A stretch of DNA of 64,000 bases from Trypanosoma brucei. Taxonomy: Eukaryota. The stretch is taken from the NCBI GenBank assembly GCA_000002445.1, contig CM000207.1, positions 512,001 to 576,000 on the forward strand, in the 5' to 3' direction. This document shows positions 9,184 through 33,500 of this stretch, one piece after another. Numbering within the stretch: the stretch's first letter is position 1; every line of letters begins with the position of its first letter. Made by a program: the position numbers and the translations under genes. The notes under the pieces are model-generated. The model did not search any database and was not told the origin of the DNA. It saw only the letters and a list, made by a program, of their open reading frames with translations.

Positions 9184-9802
9184 TTACCTCAATACTCGCG
9201 TATGGTTTACTCCACGTTGACACGCGTGGTCACTACCCTCGCAGCCACGTGACGCGCACGAGGAGTTTTAACAATAAAAACTTGATAACTCTCTCCTCTG
9301 CTACTTACACTCTCAAGTAAAAAATTAACACAAACTACTTCCTACCTATTACAGTCAGTGATATGCTTAAAAAGATTAATACCTTTATTCTCTTTTCCTC
9401 TTGTCCTCAGGTTTACAGGAAAATACGAAAGGAATCAATCAATCAATCAACATATAAAGAGGATCAGCATCAACACGCATGCAACAACATGATCATCCAC
9501 GAAAAAACATCACCAAAATCACGAGCAGCCGCAGCTACAATACACACACACAAACACACAGATGCGCAAAAACGTACACCGATACCACCTTTCTATATAT
9601 GTCATAAAACAAGCAGCAACAAAAAAGCAACAGAAAAGACACAAACGCACACAAACACACAGAAATTTAAAAATGTTAAAAAACAAATCCACATAAAAAA
9701 CAGCAACAATATATATGCAAAACAGCACAATCAGCACCAACGTACAGAAGCAATATAAAATATACAAACAACAAAAGCTACACACAAAAAGTCAGTAAAG
9801 CA
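7470..9802 (-). repeat. segmental tandem duplication, copy 1 (2.73 kb period): gene A 5' 1.7 kb plus 0.6 kb upstream flank
   Basis: Near-identical to 10210-12535. Offset is 2733 bp at the gene starts (9183 vs 11916). The flank 9184-9802 matches 11917-12535. Confidence 0.9.
8193..8991 (-). other. dynein stalk/MTBD-like domain within paralog A (equivalent region in paralog B at about 10930-11725)
   Basis: Same motif order as in the giant protein. The Trp marking the start of the domain is at residue 143 in both proteins. Confidence 0.55.
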
Positions 9803-10176
9803 AATTAATACGTCATAAACACATAAAACAAACAGCGTAATTGCCGACACATGACGTCACCACAAAGAAGCCGAACCAGATCCAGTGGTAAAGGAGAAAT
9901 CCCATGAATTAGGGTGGCAAACCAAAGATACAAGCAAGAAAGGTGTATAAAGATTGGATACACTTCCAACGCTAACACCATCTAACTGTGAGAAAACAAT
10001 CAGAGGTGCAATTCAATAAGAAATCGCCTGCAGCAGGTAAATAGCATTTTAAAAATGAAAATGCAAAATTAACAAATGAAAGGTTGCAAAGTTACGTAAA
10101 ACTGTTAAACTACAAGCGGTATTTAGGAATAGAAAAAAAAAATTACGACACAACGATAAAGAAACTTTTCAAGGAA

Positions 10177-11916: not shown

Positions 11917-12535
11917 TTACCTCAATACTCGCGTATGGTTTACTCCACGTTGACACGCGTGGTCACTACCCTCGCAGCCACGTGACGCGCACGAGGAGTT
12001 TTAACAATAAAAACTTGATAACTCTCTCCTCTGCTACTTACACTCTCAAGTAAAAAATTAACACAAACTACTTCCTACCTATTACAGTCAGTGATATGCT
12101 TAAAAAGATTAATACCTTTATTCTCTTTTCCTCTTGTCCTCAGGTTTACAGGAAAATACGAAAGGAATCAATCAATCAATCAACATATAAAGAGGATCAG
12201 CATCAACACGCATGCAACAACATGATCATCCACGAAAAAACATCACCAAAATCACGAGCAGCCGCAGCTACAATACACACACACAAACACACAGATGCGC
12301 AAAAACGTACACCGATACCACCTTTCTATATATGTCATAAAACAAGCAGCAACAAAAAAGCAACAGAAAAGAAACAAACGCACACAAACACACAGAAATT
12401 TAAAAATGTTAAAAAACAAATCCACATAAAAAAAAGCAACAATATATATGCAAAACAGCACAATCAGCACCAACGTACAGAAGCAATATAAAATATACAA
12501 ACAACAAAAGCTACACACAAAAAGTCAATAAAGCA
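10210..12535 (-). repeat. segmental tandem duplication, copy 2 (gene B plus flank); flank copy abuts the 3' end of the giant ORF
   Basis: See copy 1. The flank copy ends at about 12535, where the 600-bp repeat array sequence begins. The giant ORF's TGA (12525-12527) lies inside the flank-derived sequence. Confidence 0.9.
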
Positions 12536-15500
12536 TCCACACAGCAGTGTATGGACACTCGTGGAGACTCTCATCAATATCATCCTTCTTTAGGTTGTGT
12601 GGTGGGGTTATGGTAAATTCAAGTTTTAGCATTTCCTCGCTGTAACTCACCACCAAGTCCTGCACCTGTTCCTCATTAAGATGCAACTGAGCAGCCGTTT
12701 CTTTGGTAAAGGCACTTACGACATCAGGTTTCCTCTTCTCCAAAACATAATCCCAGTCCTCACCCTCAAACCCAACATAGTGTTTCGTCACCGTTCCTGT
12801 TGCAGAAGATGAATCCTTCATCATAGCCGCACGTGCAGCGGAAGCACGTGGCACATATAGTGACCACATCTCAGAGAAGGGGCATGCAGCAAGGGTACTT
12901 AATATATCAGCATCATTTAATGAGCACCCAATGACTTTATAATCAATCAACAGACTTCCGAGTCGGCAATCAATGATAACCGCCTGCTGTGGAGAGACAC
13001 CGAGAACACGCGCAGCGTCATTACGGAATGCGTTCTCCAACCCTTCACGATCACCACTAAGCACAAGATCCCAATCATCTCCCTCAAATTTCTCTGTCAA
13101 TACCGATGACTCCCGTGGTCTAAGTTCATACAGCATCCACACAGCAGTGTATGGACATTCATTAAGACGCTCATCAATATCATCCTTCTTTAAGTTGTGT
13201 GGTGGGGTTATGGTAAATTCAAGTTTTAGCATTTCCTCGCTGTAACTCAGCACCAAGTCCTGCACCTGTTCCTCATTAAGATGCAACTGAGCAGCCGTTT
13301 CTTTGGTAAAGGCACTTACGACATCAGGTTTCCTCTTCTCCAAAACATAATCCCAGTCCTCACCCTCAAACCCAACATAGTGTTTCGTCACCGTTTCTGT
13401 TGCAGAAGATGAATCCTTCATCATAGCCGCACGTGCAGCGGAAGCACGTGGCACATATAGTGACCACACTTCAGAGAAGGGACATGCAGCAAGGGTACTT
13501 AATATATCAGCATCATTTAATGAGCACCCAATGACTTTATAATCAATCAACAGACTTCCGAGTCGGCAATCAATGATAACCACCTGCTGTGGAGAGACAC
13601 CGAGAACACGCGCAGCGTCATTACGGAATGCGTTCTCCAACCCTTCACGATCACCACTAAGCACAAGATCCCAATCATCTCCCTCAAATTTTTCTGTCAA
13701 TACCGATGACTCCCGTGGTCTAGATTCATACAGCATCCACACAGCAGTGTATGGACATTCATTAAGACGCTCATCAATATCATCCTTCTTTAGGTTGTGT
13801 GGTAGGGTTATGGTAAATTCAAGTTTTAGCATTTCCTCGCTGTAACTCACCACCAAGTCCTGCACCTGTTCCTCATTAAGTTGCAACTGAGCAGCCGTTT
13901 CTTTGGTAAAGGCACTTACGACATCAGGTTTCCTCTTCTCCAAAACATAATCCCAGTCCTCACCCTCAAATTCCACGTGGTGTTGCGTAACCGTTTCTGT
14001 TGCAGAAGATGAATCCTTCATCATAGCCGCACGTGCAGCGGAAGCACGTGGCACATATAGTGACCACATCTCAGAGAAGGGACATGCAGCAAGGGTACTT
14101 AATATATCAGCATCATTTAATGAGCTCCCAATGACTTTATAATCAATCAACAGACTTCCGAGTCGGCAATCAATGATAACCACCTGCTGTGGAGAGACAC
14201 CGAGAACACGCGCAGCGTCATTACGGAATGCGTTCTCCAACCCTTCACGATCACCACTAAGCACAAGATCCCAATCATCTCCCTCAAATTTTTCTGTCAA
14301 TACCGATGACTCCCGTGGTCTAGATTCATACAGCATCCACACAGCAGTGTATGGACATTCATTAAGACGCTCATCAATATCATCCTTCTTTAGGTTGTGT
14401 GGTAGGGTTATGGTAAATTCAAGTTTTAGCATTTCCTCGCTGTAACTCACCACCAAGTCCTGCACCTGTTCCTCATTAAGTTGCAACTGAGCAGCCGTTT
14501 CTTTGGTAAAGGCACTTACGACATCAGGTTTCCTCTTCTCCAAAACATAATCCCAGTCCTCACCCTCAAATTCCACGTGGTGTTGCGTAACCGTTTCTGT
14601 TGCAGAAGATGAATCCTCCATCATAGCCGCACGTGCAGCGGAAGCACGTGGCACATATAGTGACCACACCTCAGAGAAGGGACATGCAGCAAGGGTACTT
14701 AATATATCAGCATCATTTAATGAGCTCCCAATGACTTTATAATCAATTAACAGACTTCCGAGTCGGCAATCAATGATAACCACCTGCTGTGGAGAGACAC
14801 CGAGAACACGCGCAGCGTCATTACGGAATGCGTTCTCCAACCCTTCACGATCACCACTAAGCACAAGATCCCAGTCATCTCCCTCAAATTTTTCTGTCAA
14901 TACCGATGACTCCCGTGGTCTAGATTCATACAGCATCCACACAGCAGTGTATGGACATTCATTAAGACGCTCATCAATATCATCCTTCTTTAGGTTGTGT
15001 GGTAGGGTTATGGTAAATTCAAGTTTTAGCATTTCCTCGCTGTAACTCACCACCAAGTCCTGCACCTGTTCCTCATTAAGTTGCAACTGAGCAGCCGTTT
15101 CTTTGGTAAAGGCACTTACGACATCAGGTTTCCTCTTCTCCAAAACATAATCCCAGTCCTCACCCTCAAATTCCACGTGGTGTTGCGTAACCGTTTCTGT
15201 TGCAGAAGATGAATCCTCCATCATAGCCGCACGTGCAGCGGAAGCACGTGGCACATATAGTGACCACATCTCAGAGAAGGGACATGCAGCAAGGGTACTT
15301 AATATATCAGCATCATTTAATGAGCTCCCAATGACTTTATAATCAATCAACAGACTTCCGAGTCGGCAATCAATGATAACCACCTGCTGTGGAGAGACAC
15401 CGAGAACACGCGCAGCGTCATTACGGAATGCGTTCTCCAACCCTTCACGATCACCACTAAGCACAAGATCCCAATCATCTCCCTCAAATTTTTCTGTCAG

Positions 15501-18500
15501 TACCGATGACTCCCGTGGTCTAGATTCATACAGCATCCACACAGCAGTGTATGGACATTCATTAAGACGCTCATCAATATCATCCTTCTTTAGGTTGTGT
15601 GGTAGGGTTATGGTAAATTCAAGTTTTAGCATTTCCTCGCTGTAACTCACCACCAAGTCCTGCACCTGTTCCTCATTAAGTTGCAACTGAGCAGCCGTTT
15701 CTTTGGTAAAGGCACTTACGACATCAGGTTTCCTCTTCTCCAAAACATAATCCCAGTCCTCACCCTCAAATTCCACGTGGTGTTGCGTAACCGTTTCTGT
15801 TGCAGAAGATGAATCCTTCATCATAGCCGCACGTGCAGCGGAAGCACGTGGCACATATAGTGACCACACCTCAGAGAAGGGACATGCAGCAAGGGTACTT
15901 AATATATCAGCATCATTTAATGAGCACCCAATGACTTTATAATCAATCAACAGACTTCCGAGTCGGCAATCAATGATAACCACCTGCTGTGGAGAGACAC
16001 CGAGAACACGCGCAGCGTCATTACGGAATGCGTTCTCCAACCCTTCACGATCACCACTAAGCACAAGATCCCAATCATCTCCCTCAAATTTCTCTGTCAA
16101 TACCGATGACTCCCGTGGTCTAGATTCATACAGCATCCACACAGCAGTGTATGGACATTCATTAAGACGCTCATCAACATCATCCTTCTTTAGGTTGTGT
16201 GGTAGGGTTATGGTAAATTCAAGTTTTAGCATTTCCTCGCTGTAACTCACCACCAAGTCCTGCACCTGTTCCTCATTAAGTTGCAACTGAGCAGCCGTTT
16301 CTTTGGTAAAGGCACTTACGACATCAGGTTTCCTCTTCTCCAAAACATAATCCCAGTCCTCACCCTCAAATTCCACGTGGTGTTGCGTAACCGTTTCTGT
16401 TGCAGAAGATGAATCCTCCATCATAGCCGCACGTGCAGCGGAAGCACGTGGCACATATAGTGACCACACCTCAGAGAAGGGACATGCAGCAAGGGTACTT
16501 AATATATCAGCATCATTTAATGAGCACCCAATGACTTTATAATCAATCAACAGACTTCCGAGTCGGCAATCAATGATAACCACCTGCTGTGGAGAGACAC
16601 CGAGAGCACACGCAGCGTCATTACGGAATGCGTTCTCCAACCCTTCACGATCACCACTAAGCACAAGATCCCAGTCATCTCCCTCAAATTTTTCTGTCAA
16701 TACCGATGACTCCCGTGGTCTAGGTTCATACAGCATCCACACAGCAGTGTATGGACATTCGTGGAGACGCTCATCAATATCATCCTTCTGTAGGTTGTGT
16801 GGTAGGGTTATGGTAAATTCAAGTTTTAGCATTTCCTCGCTGTAACTCACCACCAAGTCCTGCACCTGTTCCTCATTAAGTTGCAACTGAGCAGCCGTTT
16901 CTTTGGTAAAGGCACTTACGACATCAGGTTTCCTCTTCTCCAAAACATAATCCCAGTCCTCACCCTCAAATTCCACGTGGTGTTGCGTAACCGTTTCTGT
17001 TGCAGAAGATGAATCCTCCATCATAGCCGCACGTGCAGCGGAAGCACGTGGCACATATAGTGACCACATCTCAGAGAAGGGACATGCAGCAAGGGTACTT
17101 AATATATCAGCATCATTTAATGAGCACCCAATGACTTTATAATCAATCAACAGACTTCCGAGTCGGCAATCAATGATAACCACCTGCTGTGGAGAGACAC
17201 CGAGAGCACGCGCAGCGTCATTACGGAATGCGTTCTCCAACCCTTCACGATCACCACTAAGCACAAGATCCCAATCATCTCCCTCAAATTTCTCTGTCAA
17301 TACCGATGACTCCCGTGGTCTAGATTCATACAGCATCCACACAGCAGTGTATGGACATTCATTAAGACGCTCATCAATATCATCCTTCTTTAGGTTGTGT
17401 GGTAGGGTTATGGTAAATTCAAGTTTTAGCATTTCCTCGCTGTAACTCACCACCAAGTCCTGCACCTGTTCCTCATTAAGTTGCAACTGAGCAGCCGTTT
17501 CTTTGGTAAAGGCACTTACGACATCAGGTTTCCTCTTCTCCAAAACATAATCCCAGTCCTCACCCTCAAATTCCACGTGGTGTTGCGTAACCGTTTCTGT
17601 TGCAGAAGATGAATCCTCCATCATAGCCGCACGTGCAGCGGAAGCACGTGGCACATATAGTGACCACACCTCAGAGAAGGGACATGCAGCAAGGGTACTT
17701 AATATATCAGCATCATTTAATGAGCACCCAATGACTTTATAATCAATCAACAGACTTCCGAGTCGGCAATCAATGATAACCACCTGCTGTGGAGAGACAC
17801 CGAGAGCACACGCAGCGTCATTACGGAATGCGTTCTCCAACCCTTCACGATCACCACTAAGCACAAGATCCCAATCATCTCCCTCAAATTTCTCTGTCAA
17901 TACCGATGACTCCCGTGGTCTAGATTCATACAGCATCCACACAGCAGTGTATGGACATTCATTAAGACGCTCATCAACATCATCCTTCTTTAGGTTGTGT
18001 GGTAGGGTTATGGTAAATTCAAGTTTTAGCATTTCCTCGCTGTAACTCACCACCAAGTCCTGCACCTGTTCCTCATTAAGTTGCAACTGAGCAGCCGTTT
18101 CTTTGGTAAAGGCACTTACGACATCAGGTTTCCTCTTCTCCAAAACATAATCCCAGTCCTCACCCTCAAATTCCACGTGGTGTTGCGTAACCGTTTCTGT
18201 TGCAGAAGATGAATCCTCCATCATAGCCGCACGTGCAGCGGAAGCACGTGGCACATATAGTGACCACACCTCAGAGAAGGGACATGCAGCAAGGGTACTT
18301 AATATATCAGCATCATTTAATGAGCACCCAGTGACTTTATAATCAATCAACAGACTTCCGAGTCGGCAATCAATGATAACCACCTGCTGTGGAGAGACAC
18401 CGAGAACACGCGCAGCGTCATTACGGAATGCGTTCTCCAACCCTTCACGATCACCACTAAGCACAAGATCCCAATCATCTCCCTCAAATTTTTCTGTCAG

Positions 18501-21500
18501 TACCGATGACTCCCGTGGTCTAGGTTCATACAGCATCCACACAGCAGTGTATGGACATTCGTGGAGACGCTCATCAATATCATCCTTCTTTAGGTTGTGT
18601 GGTGGGGTTATGGTAAATTCAAGTTTTAGCATTTCCTCGCTGTAACTCACCACCAAGTCCTGCACCTGTTCCTCATTAAGTTGCAACTGAGCAGCCGTTT
18701 CTTTGGTAAAGGCACTTACGACATCAGGTTTCCTCTTCTCCAAAACATAATCCCAGTCCTCACCCTCAAATTCCACGTGGTGTTGCGTAACCGTTTCTGT
18801 TGCAGAAGATGAATCCTCCATCATAGCCGCACGTGCAGCGGAAGCACGTGGCACATATAGTGACCACACCTCAGAGAAGGGACATGCAGCAAGGTTACTT
18901 AATATATCAGCATCATTTAATGAGCACCCAATGACTTTATAATCAATCAACAGACTTCCGAGTCGGCAATCAATGATAACCACCTGCTGTGGAGAGACAC
19001 CGAGAGCACGCGCAGCGTCATTACGGAATGCGTTCTCCAACCCTTCACGATCACCACTAAGCACAAGATCCCAATCATCTCCCTCAAATTTTTCTGTCAA
19101 TACCGATGACTCCCGTGGTCTAGATTCATACAGCATCCACACAGCAGTGTATGGACATTCATTAAGACGCTCATCAACATCATCCTTCTTTAGGTTGTGT
19201 GGTAGGGTTATGGTAAATTCAAGTTTTAGCATTTCCTCGCTGTAACTCACCACCAAGTCCTGCACCTGTTCCTCATTAAGTTGCAACTGAGCAGCCGTTT
19301 CTTTGGTAAAGGCACTTACGACATCAGGTTTCCTCTTCTCCAAAACATAATCCCAGTCCTCACCCTCAAATTCCACGTGGTGTTGCGTAACCGTTTCTGT
19401 TGCAGAAGATGAATCCTTCATCATAGCCGCACGTGCAGCGGAAGCACGTGGCACATATAGTGACCACACTTCAGAGAAGGGACATGCAGCAAGGGTACTT
19501 AATATATCAGCATCATTTAATGAGCACCCAATGACTTTATAATCAATCAACAGACTTCCGAGTCGGCAATCAATGATAACCACCTGCTGTGGAGAGACAC
19601 CGAGAGCACGCGCAGCGTCATTACGGAATGCGTTCTCCAACCCTTCACGATCACCACTAAGCACAAGATCCCAATCATCTCCCTCAAATTTCTCTGTCAA
19701 TACCGATGACTCCCGTGGTCTAGATTCATACAGCATCCACACAGCAGTGTATGGACATTCATTAAGACGCTCATCAACATCATCCTTCTTTAGGTTGTGT
19801 GGTAGGGTTATGGTAAATTCAAGTTTTAGCATTTCCTCGCTGTAACTCACCACCAAGTCCTGCACCTGTTCCTCATTAAGTTGCAACTGAGCAGCCGTTT
19901 CTTTGGTAAAGGCACTTACGACATCAGGTTTCCTCTTCTCCAAAACATAATCCCAGTCCTCACCCTCAAATTCCACGTGGTGTTGCGTAACCGTTTCTGT
20001 TGCAGAAGATGAATCCTTCATCATAGCCGCACGTGCAGCGGAAGCACGTGGCACATATAGTGACCACACCTCAGAGAAGGGACATGCAGCAAGGGTACTT
20101 AATATATCAGCATCATTTAATGAGCACCCAATGACTTTATAATCAATCAACAGACTTCCGAGTCGGCAATCAATGATAACCACCTGCTGTGGAGAGACAC
20201 CGAGAACACGCGCAGCGTCATTACGGAATGCGTTCTCCAACCCTTCACGATCACCACTAAGCACAAGATCCCAATCATCTCCCTCAAATTTTTCTGTCAG
20301 TACCGATGACTCCCGTGGTCTAGATTCATACAGCATCCACACAGCAGTGTATGGACATTCATTAAGACGCTCATCAATATCATCCTTCTTTAGGTTGTGT
20401 GGTAGGGTTATGGTAAATTCAAGTTTTAGCATTTCCTCGCTGTAACTCACCACCAAGTCCTGCACCTGTTCCTCATTAAGTTGCAACTGAGCAGCCGTTT
20501 CTTTGGTAAAGGCACTTACGACATCAGGTTTCCTCTTCTCCAAAACATAATCCCAGTCCTCACCCTCAAATTCCACGTGGTGTTGCGTAACCGTTTCTGT
20601 TGCAGAAGATGAATCCTCCATCATAGCCGCACGTGCAGCGGAAGCACGTGGCACATATAGTGACCACACTTCAGAGAAGGGACATGCAGCAAGGGTACTT
20701 AATATATCAGCATCATTTAATGAGCTCCCAATGACTTTATAATCAATCAACAGACTTCCGAGTCGGCAATCAATGATAACCACCTGCTGTGGAGAGACAC
20801 CGAGAACACGCGCAGCGTCATTACGGAATGCGTTCTCCAACCCTTCACGATCACCACTAAGCACAAGATCCCAATCATCTCCCTCAAATTTTTCTGTCAG
20901 TACCGATGACTCCCGTGGTCTAGGTTCATACAGCATCCACACAGCAGTGTATGGACATTCGTGGAGACGCTCATCAATATCATCCTTCTTTAGGTTGTGT
21001 GGTGGGGTTATGGTAAATTCAAGTTTTAGCATTTCCTCGCTGTAACTCACCACCAAGTCCTGCACCTGTTCCTCATTAAGTTGCAACTGAGCAGCCGTTT
21101 CTTTGGTAAAGGCACTTACGACATCAGGTTTCCTCTTCTCCAAAACATAATCCCAGTCCTCACCCTCAAATTCCACGTGGTGTTGCGTAACCGTTTCTGT
21201 TGCAGAAGATGAATCCTTCATCATAGCCGCACGTGCAGCGGAAGCACGTGGCACATATAGTGACCACATCTCAGAGAAGGGACATGCAGCAAGGGTACTT
21301 AATATATCAGCATCATTTAATGAGCACCCAATGACTTTATAATCAATCAACAGACTTCCGAGTCGGCAATCAATGATAACCACCTGCTGTGGAGAGACAC
21401 CGAGAACACGCGCAGCGTCATTACGGAATGCGTTCTCCAACCCTTCACGATCACCACTAAGCACAAGATCCCAATCATCTCCCTCAAATTTTTCTGTCAA

Positions 21501-24500
21501 TACCGATGACTCCCGTGGTCTAGATTCATACAGCATCCACACAGCAGTGTATGGACATTCATTAAGACGCTCATCAATATCATCCTTCTTTAGGTTGTGT
21601 GGTGGGGTTATGGTAAATTCAAGTTTTAGCATTTCCTCGCTGTAACTCAGCACCAAGTCCTGCACCTGTTCCTCATTAAGATGCAACTGAGCAGCCGTTT
21701 CTTTGGTAAAGGCACTTACGACATCAGGTTTCCTCTTCTCCAAAACATAATCCCAGTCCTCACCCTCAAACCCAACATAGTGTTTCGTCACCGTTCCTGT
21801 TGCAGAAGATGAATCCTTCATCATAGCCGCACGTGCAGCGGAAGCACGTGGCACATATAGTGACCACATCTCAGAGAAGGGACATGCAGCAAGGGTACTT
21901 AATATATCAGAATCATTTAATGAGCGTCCAATGACTTTATAATCAATCAACAGACTTCCGAGTCGGCAATCAATGATAACCACCTGCTGTGGAGAGACAC
22001 CGAGAACACGCGCAGCGTCATTACGGAATGCGTTCTCCAACCCTTCACGATCACCACTAAGCACAAGATCCCAATCATCTCCCTCAAATTTTTCTGTCAA
22101 TACCGATGACTCCCGTGGTCTAGATTCATACAGCATCCACACAGCAGTGTATGGACATTCATTAAGACGCTCATCAATATCATCCTTCTTTAGGTTGTGT
22201 GGTGGGGTTATGGTAAATTCAAGTTTTAGCATTTCCTCGCTGTAACTCACCACCAAGTCCTGCACCTGTTCCTCATTAAGTTGCAACTGAGCAGCCGTTT
22301 CTTTGGTAAAGGCACTTACGACATCAGGTTTCCTCTTCTCCAAAACATAATCCCAGTCCTCACCCTCAAATTCCACGTGGTGTTGCGTAACCGTTTCTGT
22401 TGCAGAAGATGAATCCTTCATCATAGCCGCACGTGCAGCGGAAGCACGTGGCACATATAGTGACCACACTTCAGAGAAGGGACATGCAGCAAGGGTACTT
22501 AATATATCAGCATCATTTAATGAGCACCCAATGACTTTATAATCAATCAACAGACTTCCGAGTCGGCAATCAATGATAACCACCTGCTGTGGAGAGACAC
22601 CGAGAACACGCGCAGCGTCATTACGGAATGCGTTCTCCAACCCTTCACGATCACCACTAAGCACAAGATCCCAGTCATCTCCCTCAAATTTTTCTGTCAA
22701 TACCGATGACTCCCGTGGTCTAGATTCATACAGCATCCACACAGCAGTGTATGGACATTCATTAAGACGCTCATCAATATCATCCTTCTTTAGGTTGTGT
22801 GGTGGGGTTATGGTAAATTCAAGTTTTAGCATTTCCTCGCTGTAACTCACCACCAAGTCCTGCACCTGTTCCTCATTAAGTTGCAACTGAGCAGCCGTTT
22901 CTTTGGTAAAGGCACTTACGACATCAGGTTTCCTCTTCTCCAAAACATAATCCCAGTCCTCACCCTCAAATTCCACGTGGTGTTGCGTAACCGTTTCTGT
23001 TGCAGAAGATGAATCCTTCATCATAGCCGCACGTGCAGCGGAAGCACGTGGCACATATAGTGACCACATCTCAGAGAAGGGACATGCAGCAAGGGTACTT
23101 AATATATCAGAATCATTTAATGAGCACCCAATGACTTTATAATCAATCAACAGACTTCCGAGTCGGCAATCAATGATAACCACCTGCTGTGGAGAGACAC
23201 CGAGAACACGCGCAGCGTCATTACGGAATGCGTTCTCCAACCCTTCACGATCACCACTAAGCACAAGATCCCAGTCATCTCCCTCAAATTTCTCTGTCAA
23301 TACCGATGACTCCCGTGGTCTAGATTCATACAGCATCCACACAGCAGTGTATGGACATTCATTAAGACGCTCATCAATATCATCCTTCTTTAGGTTGTGT
23401 GGTAGGGTTATGGTAAATTCAAGTTTTAGCATTTCCTCGCTGTAACTCACCACCAAGTCCTGCACCTGTTCCTCATTAAGTTGCAACTGAGCAGCCGTTT
23501 CTTTGGTAAAGGCACTTACGACATCAGGTTTCCTCTTCTCCAAAACATAATCCCAGTCCTCACCCTCAAATTCCACGTGGTGTTGCGTAACCGTTTCTGT
23601 TGCAGAAGATGAATCCTTCATCATAGCCGCACGTGCAGCGGAAGCACGTGGCACATATAGTGACCACATCTCAGAGAAGGGACATGCAGCAAGGGTACTT
23701 AATATATCAGCATCATTTAATGAGCACCCAATGACTTTATAATCAATCAACAGACTTCCGAGTCGGCAATCAATGATAACCACCTGCTGTGGAGAGACAC
23801 CGAGAACACGCGCAGCGTCATTACGGAATGCGTTCTCCAACCCTTCACGATCACCACTAAGCACAAGATCCCAGTCATCTCCCTCAAATTTTTCTGTCAA
23901 TACCGATGACTCCCGTGGTCTAGATTCATACAGCATCCACACAGCAGTGTATGGACATTCATTAAGACGCTCATCAATATCATCCTTCTTTAGGTTGTGT
24001 GGTGGGGTTATGGTAAATTCAAGTTTTAGCATTTCCTCGCTGTAACTCACCACCAAGTCCTGCACCTGTTCCTCATTAAGTTGCAACTGAGCAGCCGTTT
24101 CTTTGGTAAAGGCACTTACGACATCAGGTTTCCTCTTCTCCAAAACATAATCCCAGTCCTCACCCTCAAATTCCACGTGGTGTTGCGTAACCGTTTCTGT
24201 TGCAGAAGATGAATCCTTCATCATAGCCGCACGTGCAGCGGAAGCACGTGGCACATATAGTGACCACACCTCAGAGAAGGGACATGCAGCAAGGGTACTT
24301 AATATATCAGCATCATTTAATGAGCACCCAATGACTTTATAATCAATCAACAGACTTCCGAGTCGGCAATCAATGATAACCACCTGCTGTGGAGAGACAC
24401 CGAGAACACGCGCAGCGTCATTACGGAATGCGTTCTCCAACCCTTCACGATCACCACTAAGCACAAGATCCCAGTCATCTCCCTCAAATTTTTCTGTCAA

Positions 24501-27500
24501 TACCGATGACTCCCGTGGTCTAGATTCATACAGCATCCACACAGCAGTGTATGGACATTCATTAAGACGCTCATCAATATCATCCTTCTTTAGGTTGTGT
24601 GGTGGGGTTATGGTAAATTCAAGTTTTAGCATTTCCTCGCTGTAACTCACCACCAAGTCCTGCACCTGTTCCTCATTAAGTTGCAACTGAGCAGCCGTTT
24701 CTTTGGTAAAGGCACTTACGACATCAGGTTTCCTCTTCTCCAAAACATAATCCCAGTCCTCACCCTCAAATTCCACGTGGTGTTGCGTAACCGTTTCTGT
24801 TGCAGAAGATGAATCCTTCATCATAGCCGCACGTGCAGCGGAAGCACGTGGCACATATAGTGACCACATCTCAGAGAAGGGACATGCAGCAAGGGTACTT
24901 AATATATCAGCATCATTTAATGAGCACCCAATGACTTTATAATCAATCAACAGACTTCCGAGTCGGCAATCAATGATAACCACCTGCTGTGGAGAGACAC
25001 CGAGAACACGCGCAGCGTCATTACGGAATGCGTTCTCCAACCCTTCACGATCACCACTAAGCACAAGATCCCAGTCATCTCCCTCAAATTTTTCTGTCAA
25101 TACCGATGACTCCCGTGGTCTAGATTCATACAGCATCCACACAGCAGTGTATGGACATTCATTAAGACGCTCATCAACATCATCCTTCTTTAGGTTGTGT
25201 GGTAGGGTTATGGTAAATTCAAGTTTTAGCATTTCCTCGCTGTAACTCACCACCAAGTCCTGCACCTGTTCCTCATTAAGTTGCAACTGAGCAGCCGTTT
25301 CTTTGGTAAAGGCACTTACAACATCAGGTTTCCTCTTCTCCAAAACATAATCCCAGTCCTCACCCTCAAATTCCATGTGGTGTTGCGTAACCGTTCCTGT
25401 TGCAGAAGATGAATCCTTCATCATAGCCGCACGTGCAGCGGAAGCACGTGGCACATATAGTGACCACATCTCAGAGAAGGGACATGCAGCAAGGGTACTT
25501 AATATATCAGCATCATTTAATGAGCTCCCAATGACTTTATAATCAATCAACAGACTTCCGAGTCGGCAATCAATGATAACCACCTGCTGTGGAGAGACAC
25601 CGAGAACACGCGCAGCGTCATTACGGAATGCGTTCTCCAACCCTTCACGATCACCACTAAGCACAAGATCCCAGTCATCTCCCTCAAATTTCTCTGTCAA
25701 TACCGATGACTCCCGTGGTCTAGATTCATACAGCATCCACACAGCAGTGTATGGACATTCATTAAGACGCTCATCAATATCATCCTTCTTTAGGTTGTGT
25801 GGTAGGGTTATGGTAAATTCAAGTTTTAGCATTTCCTCGCTGTAACTCACCACCAAGTCCTGCACCTGTTCCTCATTAAGTTGCAACTGAGCAGCCGTTT
25901 CTTTGGTAAAGGCACTTACGACATCAGGTTTCCTCTTCTCCAAAACATAATCCCAGTCCTCACCCTCAAATTCCACGTGGTGTTGCGTAACCGTTTCTGT
26001 TGCAGAAGATGAATCCTCCATCATAGCCGCACGTGCAGCGGAAGCACGTGGCACATATAGTGACCACATCTCAGAGAAGGGGCATGCAGCAAGGGTACTT
26101 AATATATCAGCATCATTTAATGAGCACCCAATGACTTTATAATCAATCAACAGACTTCCGAGTCGGCAATCAATGATAACCACCTGCTGTGGAGAGACAC
26201 CGAGAACACGCGCAGCGTCATTACGGAATGCGTTCTCCAACCCTTCACGATCACCACTAAGCACAAGATCCCAATCATCTCCCTCAAATTTCTCTGTCAA
26301 TACCGATGACTCCCGTGGTCTAGGTTCATACAGCATCCACACAGCAGTGTATGGACATTCGTGGAGACGCTCATCAATATCATCCTTCTTTAGGTTGTGT
26401 GGTGGGGTTATGGTAAATTCAAGTTTTAGCATTTCCTCGCTGTAACTCACCACCAAGTCCTGCACCTGTTCCTCATTAAGTTGCAACTGAGCAGCCGTTT
26501 CTTTGGTAAAGGCACTTACGACATCAGGTTTCCTCTTCTCCAAAACATAATCCCAGTCCTCACCCTCAAATTCCACGTGGTGTTGCGTAACCGTTTCTGT
26601 TGCAGAAGATGAATCCTCCATCATAGCCGCACGTGCAGCGGAAGCACGTGGCACATATAGTGACCACATCTCAGAGAAGGGACATGCAGCAAGGTTACTT
26701 AATATATCAGCATCATTTAATGAGCACCCAATGACTTTATAATCAATCAACAGACTTCCGAGTCGGCAATCAATGATAACCACCTGCTGTGGAGAGACAC
26801 CGAGAACACGCGCAGCGTCATTACGGAATGCGTTCTCCAACCCTTCACGATCACCACTAAGCACAAGATCCCAATCATCTCCCTCAAATTTTTCTGTCAG
26901 TACCGATGACTCCCGTGGTCTAGATTCATACAGCATCCACACAGCAGTGTATGGACATTCATTAAGACGCTCATCAACATCATCCTTCTTTAGGTTGTGT
27001 GGTAGGGTTATGGTAAATTCAAGTTTTAGCATTTCCTCGCTGTAACTCACCACCAAGTCCTGCACCTGTTCCTCATTAAGTTGCAACTGAGCAGCCGTTT
27101 CTTTGGTAAAGGCACTTACGACATCAGGTTTCCTCTTCTCCAAAACATAATCCCAGTCCTCACCCTCAAATTCCACGTGGTGTTGCGTAACCGTTTCTGT
27201 TGCAGAAGATGAATCCTCCATCATAGCCGCACGTGCAGCGGAAGCACGTGGCACATATAGTGACCACACTTCAGAGAAGGGACATGCAGCAAGGGTACTT
27301 AATATATCAGCATCATTTAATGAGCACCCAATGACTTTATAATCAATCAACAGACTTCCGAGTCGGCAATCAATGATAACCACCTGCTGTGGAGAGACAC
27401 CGAGAGCACGCGCAGCGTCATTACGGAATGCGTTCTCCAACCCTTCACGATCACCACTAAGCACAAGATCCCAGTCATCTCCCTCAAATTTCTCTGTCAA

Positions 27501-30500
27501 TACCGATGACTCCCGTGGTCTAGATTCATACAGCATCCACACAGCAGTGTATGGACATTCATTAAGACGCTCATCAATATCATCCTTCTTTAGGTTGTGT
27601 GGTGGGGTTATGGTAAATTCAAGTTTTAGCATTTCCTCGCTGTAACTCACCACCAAGTCCTGCACCTGTTCCTCATTAAGTTGCAACTGAGCAGCCGTTT
27701 CTTTGGTAAAGGCACTTACGACATCAGGTTTCCTCTTCTCCAAAACATAATCCCAGTCCTCACCCTCAAATTCCACGTGGTGTTGCGTAACCGTTTCTGT
27801 TGCAGAAGATGAATCCTTCATCATAGCCGCACGTGCAGCGGAAGCACGTGGCACATATAGTGACCACATCTCAGAGAAGGGACATGCAGCAAGGGTACTT
27901 AATATATCAGCATCATTTAATGAGCACCCAATGACTTTATAATCAATCAACAGACTTCCGAGTCGGCAATCAATGATAACCACCTGCTGTGGAGAGACAC
28001 CGAGAGCACACGCAGCGTCATTACGGAATGCGTTCTCCAACCCTTCACGATCACCACTAAGCACAAGATCCCAATCATCTCCCTCAAATTTCTCTGTCAA
28101 TACCGATGACTCCCGTGGTCTAGATTCATACAGCATCCACACAGCAGTGTATGGACATTCATTAAGACGCTCATCAATATCATCCTTCTTTAGGTTGTGT
28201 GGTAGGGTTATGGTAAATTCAAGTTTTAGCATTTCCTCGCTGTAACTCACCACCAAGTCCTGCACCTGTTCCTCATTAAGTTGCAACTGAGCAGCCGTTT
28301 CTTTGGTAAAGGCACTTACGACATCAGGTTTCCTCTTCTCCAAAACATAATCCCAGTCCTCACCCTCAAATTCCATGTGGTGTTGCGTAACCGTTTCTGT
28401 TGCAGAAGATGAATCCTCCATCATAGCCGCACGTGCAGCGGAAGCACGTGGCACATATAGTGACCACACCTCAGAGAAGGGACATGCAGCAAGGGTACTT
28501 AATATATCAGCATCATTTAATGAGCACCCAATGACTTTATAATCAATCAACAGACTTCCGAGTCGGCAATCAATGATAACCACCTGCTGTGGAGAGACAC
28601 CGAGAACACGCGCAGCGTCATTACGGAATGCGTTCTCCAACCCTTCACGATCACCACTAAGCACAAGATCCCAATCATCTCCCTCAAATTTTTCTGTCAG
28701 TACCGATGACTCCCGTGGTCTAGATTCATACAGCATCCACACAGCAGTGTATGGACATTCATTAAGACGCTCATCAATATCATCCTTCTTTAGGTTGTGT
28801 GGTAGGGTTATGGTAAATTCAAGTTTTAGCATTTCCTCGCTGTAACTCACCACCAAGTCCTGCACCTGTTCCTCATTAAGTTGCAACTGAGCAGCCGTTT
28901 CTTTGGTAAAGGCACTTACGACATCAGGTTTCCTCTTCTCCAAAACATAATCCCAGTCCTCACCCTCAAATTCCACGTGGTGTTGCGTAACCGTTTCTGT
29001 TGCAGAAGATGAATCCTTCATCATAGCCGCACGTGCAGCGGAAGCACGTGGCACATATAGTGACCACACTTCAGAGAAGGGACATGCAGCAAGGGTACTT
29101 AATATATCAGCATCATTTAATGAGCACCCAATGACTTTATAATCAATCAACAGACTTCCGAGTCGGCAATCAATGATAACCACCTGCTGTGGAGAGACAC
29201 CGAGAGCACGCGCAGCGTCATTACGGAATGCGTTCTCCAACCCTTCACGATCACCACTAAGCACAAGATCCCAGTCATCTCCCTCAAATTTCTCTGTCAA
29301 TACCGATGACTCCCGTGGTCTAGATTCATACAGCATCCACACAGCAGTGTATGGACATTCATTAAGACGCTCATCAATATCATCCTTCTTTAGGTTGTGT
29401 GGTAGGGTTATGGTAAATTCAAGTTTTAGCATTTCCTCGCTGTAACTCACCACCAAGTCCTGCACCTGTTCCTCATTAAGTTGCAACTGAGCAGCCGTTT
29501 CTTTGGTAAAGGCACTTACGACATCAGGTTTCCTCTTCTCCAAAACATAATCCCAGTCCTCACCCTCAAATTCCACGTGGTGTTGCGTAACCGTTTCTGT
29601 TGCAGAAGATGAATCCTCCATCATAGCCGCACGTGCAGCGGAAGCACGTGGCACATATAGTGACCACATCTCAGAGAAGGGACATGCAGCAAGGGTACTT
29701 AATATATCAGCATCATTTAATGAGCACCCAATGACTTTATAATCAATCAACAGACTTCCGAGTCGGCAATCAATGATAACCACCTGCTGTGGAGAGACAC
29801 CGAGAGCACGCGCAGCGTCATTACGGAATGCGTTCTCCAACCCTTCACGATCACCACTAAGCACAAGATCCCAATCATCTCCCTCAAATTTTTCTGTCAA
29901 TACCGATGACTCCCGTGGTCTAGATTCATACAGCATCCACACAGCAGTGTATGGACATTCATTAAGACGCTCATCAACATCATCCTTCTTTAGGTTGTGT
30001 GGTAGGGTTATGGTAAATTCAAGTTTTAGCATTTCCTCGCTGTAACTCACCACCAAGTCCTGCACCTGTTCCTCATTAAGTTGCAACTGAGCAGCCGTTT
30101 CTTTGGTAAAGGCACTTACGACATCAGGTTTCCTCTTCTCCAAAACATAATCCCAGTCCTCACCCTCAAATTCCACGTGGTGTTGCGTAACCGTTTCTGT
30201 TGCAGAAGATGAATCCTCCATCATAGCCGCACGTGCAGCGGAAGCACGTGGCACATATAGTGACCACACTTCAGAGAAGGGACATGCAGCAAGGGTACTT
30301 AATATATCAGCATCATTTAATGAGCACCCAATGACTTTATAATCAATCAACAGACTTCCGAGTCGGCAATCAATGATAACCACCTGCTGTGGAGAGACAC
30401 CGAGAACACGCGCAGCGTCATTACGGAATGCGTTCTCCAACCCTTCACGATCACCACTAAGCACAAGATCCCAGTCATCTCCCTCAAATTTTTCTGTCAA

Positions 30501-33500
30501 TACCGATGACTCCCGTGGTCTAGATTCATACAGCATCCACACAGCAGTGTATGGACATTCATTAAGACGCTCATCAATATCATCCTTCTTTAGGTTGTGT
30601 GGTGGGGTTATGGTAAATTCAAGTTTTAGCATTTCCTCGCTGTAACTCACCACCAAGTCCTGCACCTGTTCCTCATTAAGTTGCAACTGAGCAGCCGTTT
30701 CTTTGGTAAAGGCACTTACGACATCAGGTTTCCTCTTCTCCAAAACATAATCCCAGTCCTCACCCTCAAATTCCACGTGGTGTTGCGTAACCGTTCCTGT
30801 TGCAGAAGATGAATCCTTCATCATAGCCGCACGTGCAGCGGAAGCACGTGGCACATATAGTGACCACATCTCAGAGAAGGGACATGCAGCAAGGGTACTT
30901 AATATATCAGCATCATTTAATGAGCACCCAATGACTTTATAATCAATCAACAGACTTCCGAGTCGGCAATCAATGATAACCACCTGCTGTGGAGAGACAC
31001 CGAGAACACGCGCAGCGTCATTACGGAATGCGTTCTCCAACCCTTCACGATCACCACTAAGCACAAGATCCCAGTCATCTCCCTCAAATTTTTCTGTCAA
31101 TACCGATGACTCCCGTGGTCTAGATTCATACAGCATCCACACAGCAGTGTATGGACATTCATTAAGACGCTCATCAACATCATCCTTCTTTAGGTTGTGT
31201 GGTGGGGTTATGGTAAATTCAAGTTTTAGCATTTCCTCGCTGTAACTCACCACCAAGTCCTGCACCTGTTCCTCATTAAGTTGCAACTGAGCAGCCGTTT
31301 CTTTGGTAAAGGCACTTACGACATCAGGTTTCCTCTTCTCCAAAACATAATCCCAGTCCTCACCCTCAAATTCCACGTGGTGTTGCGTAACCGTTTCTGT
31401 TGCAGAAGATGAATCCTTCATCATAGCCGCACGTGCAGCGGAAGCACGTGGCACATATAGTGACCACATCTCAGAGAAGGGGCATGCAGCAAGGGTACTT
31501 AATATATCAGCATCATTTAATGAGCACCCAATGACTTTATAATCAATCAACAGACTTCCGAGTCGGCAATCAATGATAACCACCTGCTGTGGAGAGACAC
31601 CGAGAACACGCGCAGCGTCATTACGGAATGCGTTCTCCAACCCTTCACGATCACCACTAAGCACAAGATCCCAATCATCTCCCTCAAATTTTTCTGTCAA
31701 TACCGATGACTCCCGTGGTCTAGATTCATACAGCATCCACACAGCAGTGTATGGACATTCATTAAGACGCTCATCAATATCATCCTTCTTTAGGTTGTGT
31801 GGTGGGGTTATGGTAAATTCAAGTTTTAGCATTTCCTCGCTGTAACTCACCACCAAGTCCTGCACCTGTTCCTCATTAAGTTGCAACTGAGCAGCCGTTT
31901 CTTTGGTAAAGGCACTTACGACATCAGGTTTCCTCTTCTCCAAAACATAATCCCAGTCCTCACCCTCAAATTCCATGTGGTGTTGCGTAACCGTTCCTGT
32001 TGCAGAAGATGAATCCTTCATCATAGCCGCACGTGCAGCGGAAGCACGTGGCACATATAGTGACCACATCTCAGAGAAGGGACATGCAGCAAGGGTACTT
32101 AATATATCAGCATCATTTAATGAGCTCCCAATGACTTTATAATCAATCAACAGACTTCCGAGTCGGCAATCAATGATAACCACCTGCTGTGGAGAGACAC
32201 CGAGAACACGCGCAGCGTCATTACGGAATGCGTTCTCCAACCCTTCACGATCACCACTAAGCACAAGATCCCAATCATCTCCCTCAAATTTTTCTGTCAA
32301 TACCGATGACTCCCGTGGTCTAGATTCATACAGCATCCACACAGCAGTGTATGGACATTCATTAAGACGCTCATCAATATCATCCTTCTTTAGGTTGTGT
32401 GGTAGGGTTATGGTAAATTCAAGTTTTAGCATTTCCTCGCTGTAACTCACCACCAAGTCCTGCACCTGTTCCTCATTAAGTTGCAACTGAGCAGCCGTTT
32501 CTTTGGTAAAGGCACTTACGACATCAGGTTTCCTCTTCTCCAAAACATAATCCCAGTCCTCACCCTCAAATTCCACGTGGTGTTGCGTAACCGTTTCTGT
32601 TGCAGAAGATGAATCCTTCATCATAGCCGCACGTGCAGCGGAAGCACGTGGCACATATAGTGACCACACCTCAGAGAAGGGACATGCAGCAAGGGTACTT
32701 AATATATCAGCATCATTTAATGAGCACCCAATGACTTTATAATCAATCAACAGACTTCCGAGTCGGCAATCAATGATAACCACCTGCTGTGGAGAGACAC
32801 CGAGAACACGCGCAGCGTCATTACGGAATGCGTTCTCCAACCCTTCACGATCACCACTAAGCACAAGATCCCAGTCATCTCCCTCAAATTTTTCTGTCAA
32901 TACCGATGACTCCCGTGGTCTAGATTCATACAGCATCCACACAGCAGTGTATGGACATTCATTAAGACGCTCATCAATATCATCCTTCTTTAGGTTGTGT
33001 GGTGGGGTTATGGTAAATTCAAGTTTTAGCATTTCCTCGCTGTAACTCACCACCAAGTCCTGCACCTGTTCCTCATTAAGTTGCAACTGAGCAGCCGTTT
33101 CTTTGGTAAAGGCACTTACGACATCAGGTTTCCTCTTCTCCAAAACATAATCCCAGTCCTCACCCTCAAATTCCACGTGGTGTTGCGTAACCGTTTCTGT
33201 TGCAGAAGATGAATCCTTCATCATAGCCGCACGTGCAGCGGAAGCACGTGGCACATATAGTGACCACACCTCAGAGAAGGGACATGCAGCAAGGGTACTT
33301 AATATATCAGCATCATTTAATGAGCACCCAATGACTTTATAATCAATCAACAGACTTCCGAGTCGGCAATCAATGATAACCACCTGCTGTGGAGAGACAC
33401 CGAGAACACGCGCAGCGTCATTACGGAATGCGTTCTCCAACCCTTCACGATCACCACTAAGCACAAGATCCCAATCATCTCCCTCAAATTTCTCTGTCAA

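Follow-up and report, generated by a model that had tools for sequence, protein, structure and literature searches.

We analysed a window of 64 kb from chromosome 9 of Trypanosoma brucei brucei TREU927. Its largest feature is a giant open reading frame (ORF) on the minus strand, taken from a program-made ORF list, that spans positions 12525 to 37169 of the window and encodes 8,214 aa. Judged by its sequence, this ORF is GB4, the known microtubule-associated repetitive protein Gb4, since its N-terminus is orthologous to proteins of that name, it contains FAZ1_cons domains, and the neighbouring proteins of the window are exact TREU927 entries (paralog B, described below and read from its second methionine, and six others were matched). 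Indeed, the N-terminal 750 aa gave five matches, in T. congolense, T. theileri, T. cruzi marinkellei, T. conorhini, and Leptomonas (E-values from 5e-180 to 2e-105, 31–48% identity, 83–98% query coverage), four of which are named Gb4 in their source. When the last 300 aa were used as the query of a protein search, two distant matches only were retrieved. The FAZ1_cons family (PF23398, gathering cutoff 27.5 bits) scored 307.3 bits on two array units and 219.9 bits on the N-terminal 900 aa.

For the GB4 of T. brucei, PMC4406125 and PMC8625193 cite the work of Rindisbacher, Hemphill and Seebeck (1993). As cited in PMC4406125, this work places the protein at the subpellicular microtubules' posterior end; the literature places the Leishmania ortholog there, too. 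FAZ1_cons domains (formerly Pfam-B 506) are listed for GB4 (PMC4406125), and the function of its repeats is stated to be unknown (PMC8625193). In the literature that we searched, the C-terminal end of GB4, its link to a duplicated spacer, and the absence of a tail are not described.

GB4 consists of a unique N-terminus of 750 aa followed by ~37.3 near-identical units of 600 nt, each encoding 200 aa with two FAZ1_cons domains. The homogenised tandem array extends from 12532 to 34940 (minus strand), as judged from the identity of the protein with itself when shifted by 200 residues (93–100%) and from the identity of each unit to the consensus. The 600-nt period was measured by script; the longest period of Tandem Repeats Finder is 500. 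Interior units are 97.5–99.8% identical to the consensus (mostly at least 98.7%), and the last two are 98.0% and 96.3% identical to it. At the 5′ edge, near 34940, the array starts mid-module and is preceded by decayed modules.

The N-terminal part of GB4 contains a domain (aa 69–300, positions 36270 to 36965, minus strand) whose AlphaFold2 model resembles the stalk and the microtubule-binding domain (MTBD) of dynein: a long helix, a six-helix bundle, and a second long helix are predicted, with pLDDT above 90 for most of aa 80–300. A Foldseek search against the PDB returned 52 matches at E ≤ 0.001, and all 50 matches listed are dynein heavy-chain structures, with E-values down to 2.6e-10 (e.g., 5ayh, E 8e-10; 6rzb_C, rmsd 2.9 Å over 143 columns with 29% identity). 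Unlike a dynein heavy chain, GB4 has no AAA+ motor. The Pfam family PF12777 scored 21.8 bits on GB4, below its cutoff of 24; the T. congolense GB4 ortholog has this family in its precomputed annotation. Furthermore, the N-termini of the two paralogs A and B, located downstream of GB4 on the same strand, are homologous to this domain (blastp 1e-14).

Paralog A (6901 to 9183, minus strand, 760 aa; TREU927 EAN76350 from the second methionine) represents the ancestral type, whose C-terminal extension is conserved, and paralog B (10177 to 11916, minus strand, 579 aa; EAN76352 from the second methionine) is of a truncated type without it. The motif NFAG.GL..LEDF...DDE.YR of the extension is also found in the orthologs of T. 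cruzi, T. conorhini, and T. congolense, and counterparts of B, of 578 aa, are present in T. b. gambiense and T. congolense. In T. brucei, A and B share 93.5% identity at the protein level and 97% at the DNA level, and FAZ1_cons scored 58.2 bits on A and 58.4 bits on B.

As the original prediction had stated, one and the same flank, here called F, lies directly upstream of both paralogs on the minus strand: F1 (9184 to 9802) upstream of A and F2 (11917 to 12535) upstream of B, with 99.5% identity over 619 nt; the sites that tell the two copies apart are 12528, 12434, and 12373. F2 is the whole spacer from the GB4 stop to the B start codon, and thus holds both the 3′ flank of GB4 and the presumed trans-splice region of B. 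Its coding strand (43% T and 25% G) presents pyrimidine-rich tracts followed by AG, a composition that suggests a role of F2 in RNA processing, namely in trans-splicing. The homology between the two copies continues beyond F into the coding sequences. Copy 1 of the duplicated tract (7471 to 9802, minus strand) comprises F1 and A codons 1 to ~572, copy 2 (10201 to 12535, minus strand) comprises F2 and B codons 1 to ~571, and the two are 97.0% identical over 2,345 nt. F is therefore the non-coding spacer part of a 2.33-kb tract, itself within a 2.73-kb tandem duplication of A and B, and not a free-standing element. The proposal that F spreads the gene family does not fit this arrangement: it has two copies only, F1 and F2, with none other in the 64-kb window, both within one 2.7-kb tandem duplication, and the pair formed by GB4 and an A-type gene is ancient.

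Between the two tracts lies a unique 398-nt segment, U (9803 to 10200, minus strand), which comprises the end of the B gene (last eight codons and stop) with the 3′ flank that follows, and has no counterpart upstream of F2. Under a simple tandem-duplication model a copy of U would be expected there, and it is missing: a blastn search of U against the whole 64-kb window gave the self match only. We also considered U as a decayed GB4 module. It starts with EGEDVDG*FLEK, comparable to EGEDWDYVLEK in module 2, but this reading was rejected as unsupported. With a FAZ1_cons HMM built from 491 modules, neither U nor F gave a match above those of other intergenic regions, and local DNA alignments of U to the array unit or to the terminal module of T. 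vivax were no better than those of dinucleotide shuffles.

The giant ORF ends, as originally noticed, at the junction between the array and F2, with the residues ...CPYTAVWMLY and the stop codon TGA at 12525–12527 (tca on the plus strand). This stop belongs to F2 and sits 6 nt inside it; F1 has TGA at 9792–9794. The sequence around it is shared as predicted, 12518–12535 being equal to 9785–9802 over 18 nt except for one a/g difference (12528/9795). Both the end of repeat homology and the start of F homology fall within the tetranucleotide AGCA at 12532–12535 (TGCT on the coding strand), as seen when the junction is aligned with F1 and with a unit boundary inside the array. Since array homology ends there, the GB4 ORF continues past the array with CTT TAT TGA only, and F2 holds the last two codons of the gene, its stop, and all of its 3′ flank. 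The shared identities are not due to chance, as they amount to 97–99.5% over hundreds of bases. Conversely, the last repeat had been described as cut mid-module, and this description must be corrected: FAZ1_cons covers the last 89 residues of GB4 (profile positions 2–90 of 93), so that the protein ends with an essentially complete domain, immediately before the inter-domain linker.

The boundary between array and flank is abrupt, the terminal unit keeping 96.3% identity to the consensus as far as the junction itself, whereas the other array edges (the 5′ edge in T. brucei and the 3′ edge of the T. vivax GB4) fade into decayed modules. At the junction, the microhomology consists of a perfect TGCT of 4 nt, or of TGCTnTA with one mismatch (6/7). 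Compared with the consensus unit boundary, F1 has 8 matching positions out of 14, a level not out of the ordinary. At one variant unit boundary, at 13142, the match rises to 10/14 (all-against-all rate for at least 10/14, 7e-4); we discarded this extended microhomology as evidence, since it holds at a single variant boundary of TREU927 and at neither the consensus nor DAL972. Also discarded was the idea that F is a decayed continuation of the array (local alignment score 24, against 21.4 ± 2.3 for shuffles). In T. brucei, the spacer of the A-type gene bears the edge TGCTTTACTGA.

The comparison of strains, named in the original prediction as the way to refute it, showed that the junction is not specific to the TREU927 assembly. 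Its sequence is identical in T. b. gambiense DAL972, and an independent contig of T. equiperdum OVI carries the identical junction together with the same TREU927-type variants of the terminal unit. In T. b. gambiense, homogenisation reaches within ~20 nt of the array edge.

Subspecies comparison also indicates that F1 and F2 recombine, since at four sites of F the two subspecies, T. b. brucei and T. b. gambiense, have different bases while the two copies within each agree; along the duplication, seven sites behave in this way, including these four. The only position-specific site of F is the one closest to the junction. In T. congolense, A, B, and B′ fall into one cluster at 90% identity, and the B proteins of T. 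brucei and T. congolense are 66% identical. The truncation point of the B type in T. congolense is located within ~3 codons of that in T. brucei, and the A/B duplication is thus probably old. Concerted evolution of tandem paralogs by gene conversion is a general phenomenon, which includes other trypanosomatid gene arrays. As in those cases, the paralogs of one species resemble each other more than orthologs of different species do, subspecies-specific changes are common to both copies, and the homology boundaries are sharp. Unlike in plain concerted evolution, A and B carry three short mosaic patches (~90 sites, window positions 11054–11606) that resist homogenisation, and a mosaic block of ~550 bp lies in the opposite paralog in TREU927 with respect to DAL972 and T. 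equiperdum OVI. As part of the explanation that we favour as a whole, and with the same slightly better than even odds, gene conversion between the A tract and the B tract would hold the two F copies at 99.5% identity.

The order GB4, A-type gene, SCO1/SenC, and small genes is found in the window, in T. cruzi, in Angomonas deanei, and in T. b. gambiense. In T. cruzi and Angomonas the syntenic pair consists of GB4 and a single A-type gene, with no F; this conserved synteny indicates that the pair is ancient and predates the genus. The GB4 orthologs of T. cruzi, T. conorhini, T. theileri, and A. deanei have the same N-terminal domain, FAZ1_cons arrays, and a downstream A-type gene, but they end in a non-repeat coiled-coil tail that the T. 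brucei GB4 does not have. The tail carries the motif [IL][TA][FY]LR.A...AR.ERDEY (pairwise E-values from 3e-10 to 2e-27), and no Pfam family was found for it. No remnant of it was detected in the 64-kb window by tblastn with the T. cruzi tail or by six-frame motif scans. The T. vivax GB4 is also tail-less and ends at the matching domain position, four codons past the homologous ...AVWVLY; the junction therefore probably did not remove the tail, which, on the comparison of these sequences, was probably already lost in the salivarian ancestor. When the spacer downstream of the T. vivax GB4 was compared with F, U, and the 3′ flank of A, low-complexity matches only were obtained.

These results bear unevenly on the claim that the present C-terminus of GB4 was created by a recombination junction. 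In its favour, the stop, the last two codons, and the 3′ flank occur also upstream of A, the boundary is abrupt, and the expected copy of U is missing. A marked shortening of the protein by the junction is not evident, as the likewise tail-less GB4 of T. vivax ends four codons later.

On this basis, the junction is an ordinary boundary of two repeat systems homogenised by recombination and, judging by the 64-kb window and the strains compared, neither a mobile element nor an assembly error. The explanation that we favour, with a probability of about 55%, is that the 600-nt GB4 array and the 2.73-kb B/A duplication meet here and that F2 is most likely a secondary copy, joined to the array through microhomology. 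Recombination via the TGCT(n)TA microhomology would have connected the U/F meeting point to the array, at the end of one of its module-2 domains. This could have occurred by tandem duplication of [U-F-A(1-574)] followed by deletion of the old 3′ flank of GB4, a deletion that would take with it the U copy and any decayed terminal module, or else by a one-sided, microhomology-resolved gene conversion with F1-A as the donor. In either case, GB4 would have had its 3′UTR replaced, and of its C-terminus no more than a short or decayed piece.

Breaks in T. brucei are repaired by homologous recombination and by microhomology-mediated end joining (MMEJ), the latter using microhomologies of 5–20 bp with mismatches tolerated (PMC3045614), and gene conversions with homologous recombination at one end and MMEJ at the other have been described (Glover, Jun and Horn 2011, PMC3045614). 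Similarly to the MMEJ events of that study, the GB4/F2 join connects unrelated sequences at a short motif, at the end of a homologously recombining tract. It differs from them in that those events were induced and used 5–20 bp, whereas this join is historical and has 4 perfect nt (6/7 with one mismatch), with MMEJ as its putative mechanism. The perfect microhomology, of 4 nt only, speaks against the reading of F2 as a secondary copy. So does the position of the join exactly at a domain end, which requires selection or luck, and the T. vivax GB4, whose end near the homologous ...AVWVLY implies that the T. brucei end may be inherited and F2 native.

The last point leads to the main alternative, in which GB4 has stopped after ...AVW.LY since the salivarian ancestor, F2 is the original 3′ flank, and F1 is the derived copy. 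The breakpoint of the duplication or conversion would then lie 8–11 nt before the GB4 stop, F1 would retain the relic codons TTG CTT TAC TGA, and U would have been inserted or else be B's older 3′ flank. Coherently with this, the T. vivax GB4 ends tail-less at the same module type four codons later, the leucine and tyrosine codons past the homology break preserve W.LY (CTT TAT vs CTG TAT, a synonymous-type change), and F1 has an in-frame TGA at the same position. Furthermore, homogenisation to ~20 nt of the edge, as in T. b. gambiense, would keep the terminal unit young without any truncation. We nevertheless consider a native end less likely: the breakpoint must coincide with the array edge within ~10 nt, the 398-nt U must sit exactly at the B/F1 join although it resembles nothing else in the window, and the old edges (T. 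brucei 5′ and T. vivax 3′) have decayed modules that this 3′ edge does not have. Far less probable is the proposal that F is a discrete unit, either a recombination hotspot or a mobile element, by which the gene family is spread and the array delimited. F does lie at the array boundary, and F1/F2 is the most similar part of the duplication (99.5% vs 97% overall), but this higher identity is explained by the absence from F of the three mosaic coding patches. Moreover, the two copies in 64 kb are both embedded in the continuous 2.33-kb homology that reaches into coding sequence, and no F copy is found upstream of GB4 itself or upstream of either of two small genes located downstream (one of 194 aa, for which a FAZ1_cons match is recorded, the other of 210 aa, with none on record). 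The F-less pair of GB4 and A-type gene, syntenic in T. cruzi and Angomonas, is older than the genus.

An assembly artefact, that is, a mis-join in the TREU927 reference of the array to F2 or a misplacement of the 2.3-kb copies, is the least probable of all the readings. About 22 kb of 99%-identical repeats next to a 97% duplicate are hard to assemble, the array copy number is taken from the assembly, and the ~550-bp block swapped between TREU927 and the other two assemblies could be a mis-assembly in one of them. The exact junction is nonetheless present in DAL972 and, with TREU927-type variants, on a separate contig of T. equiperdum OVI, and an overlap of 4 nt cannot produce an overlap-based mis-join.

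Within the favoured explanation of F2 as a secondary copy, a more specific course of events can be proposed tentatively, with the odds somewhat against it. The spacer upstream of A would have been copied across B and joined to the array by one-sided, microhomology-resolved conversion, giving GB4, in the chromosome core, a new stop and a 3′UTR identical to the spacer upstream of A, after the loss of the tail in Salivaria. If events took this course, GB4 would have its expression signals linked to those of a paralog with a predicted dynein-like microtubule-binding domain. In the favoured explanation as such, the 3′ flank of GB4 lies in F2. As polyadenylation in trypanosomes is coupled to downstream trans-splicing, formation of the GB4 3′ end would presumably be directed by the spacer signals that serve the trans-splicing of B.

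In general, the wider importance of these findings is small, and their consequences are practical ones for trypanosome cell biologists. The annotated C-terminus of GB4 is real and common to Trypanozoon. Since F2 and F1 are 99.5% identical, C-terminal tagging of GB4 or replacement of its 3′UTR also affects the sequence upstream of A. The salivarian GB4 (T. brucei, T. vivax) does not have the conserved tail, which could bear on how the protein is anchored. The A/B pair provides a compact natural case of concerted evolution with resistant mosaic patches. Finally, the predicted dynein stalk/MTBD-like fold at the N-terminus, common to GB4, A, and B, may represent a candidate, testable explanation of microtubule binding.

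The giant open reading frame (ORF) on the minus strand (12525..37169) encodes 8214 aa, starting with a unique region of about 750 aa that precedes the repeats. This region is 31-48% identical to Gb4-named proteins of T. congolense, T. theileri, T. cruzi marinkellei, T. conorhini, and Leptomonas, and, since these are named microtubule-associated protein Gb4, the ORF is, judging from sequence likeness, GB4. GB4 has been described as a repetitive cytoskeletal protein, the function of whose repeats is not known (PMC8625193), and it is one of a small number of T. brucei proteins listed as containing Pfam-B 506, a domain presently named FAZ1_cons (PMC4406125). The nine smaller proteins of the window that were looked up matched exactly TREU927 chromosome 9 entries (EAN76344, 76345, 76350, 76352, 76356, and 76358-76362).

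The repeat units of 200 aa run from about aa 748 to the GB4 end, with 93-100% identity at a lag of 200 residues. At the DNA level, the array holds about 37.3 units of 600 nt (copy number as assembled), each with two FAZ1_cons domains (PF23398). Identity to the consensus is 97.5-99.8% for interior units (mostly at least 98.7%), and 98.0% and 96.3% for the last two. The array starts near 34940, in the middle of a module 2 (one of the two FAZ1_cons modules of a unit), after three or four diverged AT-rich FAZ1_cons modules (within 34700-35930, minus strand): its 5′ edge is graded, in contrast to the sharp 3′ edge.

At the 3′ edge, the GB4 stop codon TGA lies at 12525-12527 (minus strand), as originally noted, and the 18 nt at 12518-12535 equal those at 9785-9802 except for one a/g difference. 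The two spacers to which these stretches belong, F1 (9184-9802) and F2 (11917-12535), are 99.5% identical and lie directly upstream of the paralogous genes A and B, respectively. On the coding strand, the junction reads ...GTG TGG ATG CTT TAT TGA CTTTTTG, an internal unit boundary ...GTG TGG ATG CTG TAT GAA..., and F1 ...AATT TGCTTTAC TGA CTTTTTG. From their alignment, the homology changes over within TGCT, and therefore F supplies two GB4 codons and the stop. The last unit had been described as cut mid-module, which does not hold: its last 89 residues cover positions 2-90 of the 93 of the FAZ1_cons profile, and the C-terminus of the protein coincides with the end of a complete domain.

The junction is real, being reproduced across three Trypanozoon genomes rather than specific to the TREU927 assembly. 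Indeed, in T. b. gambiense DAL972 the locus keeps the order array-F2-B-U-F1-A, colinear over 15.6 kb with that of the window (97.9% identity), with an identical junction sequence, and a T. equiperdum OVI segment (L008 455-1539), which bears TREU927-type variants of the terminal unit, spans the same junction at 99.7% identity. Of the internal unit boundaries in TREU927, only the last (13128-13142) reads GAA CTT (E-L), the others being GAA TCT (32) or GAA CCT (4). In F2, CTT is also the triplet directly after the stop codon. The variant is absent from DAL972, and it may reflect a minor conversion event involving the junction and the adjoining unit.

F had been proposed as an element in its own right. 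Instead, it is part of one continuous homology tract of 2345 nt (7471-9802 and 10201-12535, minus strand, 97% identity), composed of F plus the first ~571 codons of A (6901-9183, minus strand, 760 aa) and B (10177-11916, minus strand, 579 aa). In T. cruzi and T. conorhini, which have one A-type gene each, that gene shares with A a conserved C-terminal extension (NFAG.GL..LEDF...DDE.YR...), as does T. congolense A; therefore, A is the ancestral form and B a truncated copy. B departs from the homology at codon ~571-574 and then enters U (9803-10200, minus strand), a 398-nt segment with nothing similar elsewhere in the window. The end of B and the start of U (10150-10200, minus strand) read ...SVEGEDVDG*FLEK, resembling the start of GB4 module 2 (FEGEDWDYVLEK). 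HMM and shuffle tests gave no significant support to U as a decayed GB4 module.

T. congolense has one protein of the A type (767 aa) and two or more of the B type (one of 578 aa, and a partial one of 292 aa), with a B truncation point within about three codons of that of T. brucei. All three fall in one 90%-identity cluster and are only 66% identical to T. brucei B, a sequence pattern that indicates an old duplication held uniform by gene conversion. T. brucei subspecies differ at seven sites, including four in F, at which both copies agree within each subspecies; the sole position-specific F site is the one nearest the junction. Three short, strongly divergent patches (11054-11606 in B, 8324-8873 in A, minus strand) interrupt a tract otherwise ~99% identical. 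The ~550-bp block at 11054-11606, with ~90 A/B-distinguishing sites, is in B in TREU927 and in A in DAL972 and T. equiperdum OVI, and T. congolense A is like TREU927 A at two of the three patches. Either this swap is a genuine reciprocal exchange or a trans-specific dimorphism, or one of the genomes is misassembled here.

Outside Salivaria, GB4 ends differently. In a T. cruzi long-read assembly, the array gives way to a non-repeat tail of 60 aa (GAVRPRLIVAEEVEAELDSITFLRNALRRARRERDEYLALL..., L001 8630-8813), and the A-type gene comes next. The tail motif, [IL][TA][FY]LR.A...AR.ERDEY, also ends GB4 in T. theileri (L003 16886-18436), T. conorhini (P0076), Angomonas deanei (L005 20-9322, ORF of at least 3100 aa), and three further kinetoplastid proteins (P0046, P0047, and P0048), with pairwise E-values of 3e-11, 3e-10, and 2e-27. 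The tail is a conserved coiled coil to which no Pfam family corresponds, and its presence in Angomonas, which is phylogenetically outside the genus Trypanosoma, makes it ancestral. No tail was found in any of the six frames of the T. brucei window, nor in GB4 of T. vivax Y486, an early-branching salivarian; by this sequence comparison, the tail was probably lost in Salivaria before the T. brucei junction arose. In T. vivax, the homogeneous GC-rich array changes abruptly into one strongly diverged module 2 (L009 1060-1322), AT-rich, Cys/Phe-rich and decayed, and the ORF stops at ...CDFEAVWVLYIFCF, followed by 914 nt of spacer. The final residues read ...AVWVLYIFCF, and the last bases of the contig, 907 nt downstream, are ATGACGG, the first seven bases of T. 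brucei A and B.

We consider it somewhat probable (roughly 55%) that F2 was joined secondarily to the array. Had B-U-F1-A arisen by simple tandem duplication, the duplicated segment must have been U-F-A(1-574), and a U copy would be expected upstream of F2; it is absent, which counts for a secondary join, and would be explained by a later deletion or by a conversion tract from F1-A resolved at the array. The sharp 3′ edge points the same way: the last unit remains 96.3% like the consensus up to the join and no residual unit similarity was found in F, in contrast to the decayed modules at the T. brucei 5′ edge and the T. vivax 3′ edge. Break repair in T. brucei uses homologous recombination (HR) and MMEJ, and the two may combine in one conversion, each acting at a different end (PMC3045614), a geometry compatible with the array/F2 join. 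Against a secondary join, the junction microhomology is short (4 nt perfect, or 6/7), and no outgroup DNA alignable to F or U was found; F1 matches the consensus unit boundary at only 8/14 positions, and a match at 10/14 is limited to one variant boundary.

That F2 is instead the original GB4 flank is a rather unlikely alternative, but it predicts the end position of T. vivax GB4, which falls at the same domain position as in T. brucei, within four codons. The proposal that F is a hotspot or a mobile element spreading the gene family is very improbable, as the window holds only the copies F1 and F2, both inside the continuous tract. Least credible of all is an assembly artefact, since a 4-nt overlap does not allow overlap-based mis-assembly and the same junction occurs in DAL972 and T. 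equiperdum OVI. The original prediction that a recombination junction made the GB4 C-terminus is plausible, and such an event would have trimmed at most a short piece from the protein.

GB4, B, A, SCO1, and two small downstream genes (261-845, 194 aa, and 1726-2358, 210 aa, minus strand) form an old gene cluster. T. cruzi and Angomonas show synteny with this cluster, and their small genes at the corresponding positions contain FAZ1_cons; in the T. brucei pair, precomputed records for the T. b. gambiense and T. equiperdum loci list this domain for the 194-aa protein alone. An AlphaFold2 model of GB4 aa 1-330 (mean pLDDT 77.6, >90 for most of aa 80-300) predicts a small beta domain followed by a six-helix bundle set between two long helices. 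All 50 matches listed by Foldseek in the PDB were dynein stalk or microtubule-binding domain structures (E-values down to 2.6e-10), 6rzb_C fitting the model with an rmsd of 2.9 A over 143 columns and 29% identity; the Pfam PF12777 score was just under the cutoff. With high confidence, GB4 aa 69-300 (36270-36965, minus strand) are predicted to fold like the dynein heavy-chain stalk and microtubule-binding domain. The N-termini of A (~8600-9115) and B (~11335-11850), both on the minus strand, are homologous to this region (blastp, 1e-14). A full-text literature search combining GB4, dynein, and microtubule-binding domain found no paper.

Overall, the arrangement is an ordinary one, in which a tandem array borders directly on a tandem duplication that has undergone gene conversion. 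F2 makes up the entire 608-nt spacer that separates the GB4 stop from the start codon of B; its coding strand contains 43% T and 25% G, and has pyrimidine-rich tracts, each leading into an AG, at ~198 and ~384 nt from the GB4 stop. Trypanosomes couple the polyadenylation of a gene to the trans-splicing of the next one downstream. Through this coupling, GB4 3′-end formation would rely on the same F2 signals as B, and A would be served by a near-identical copy of them.
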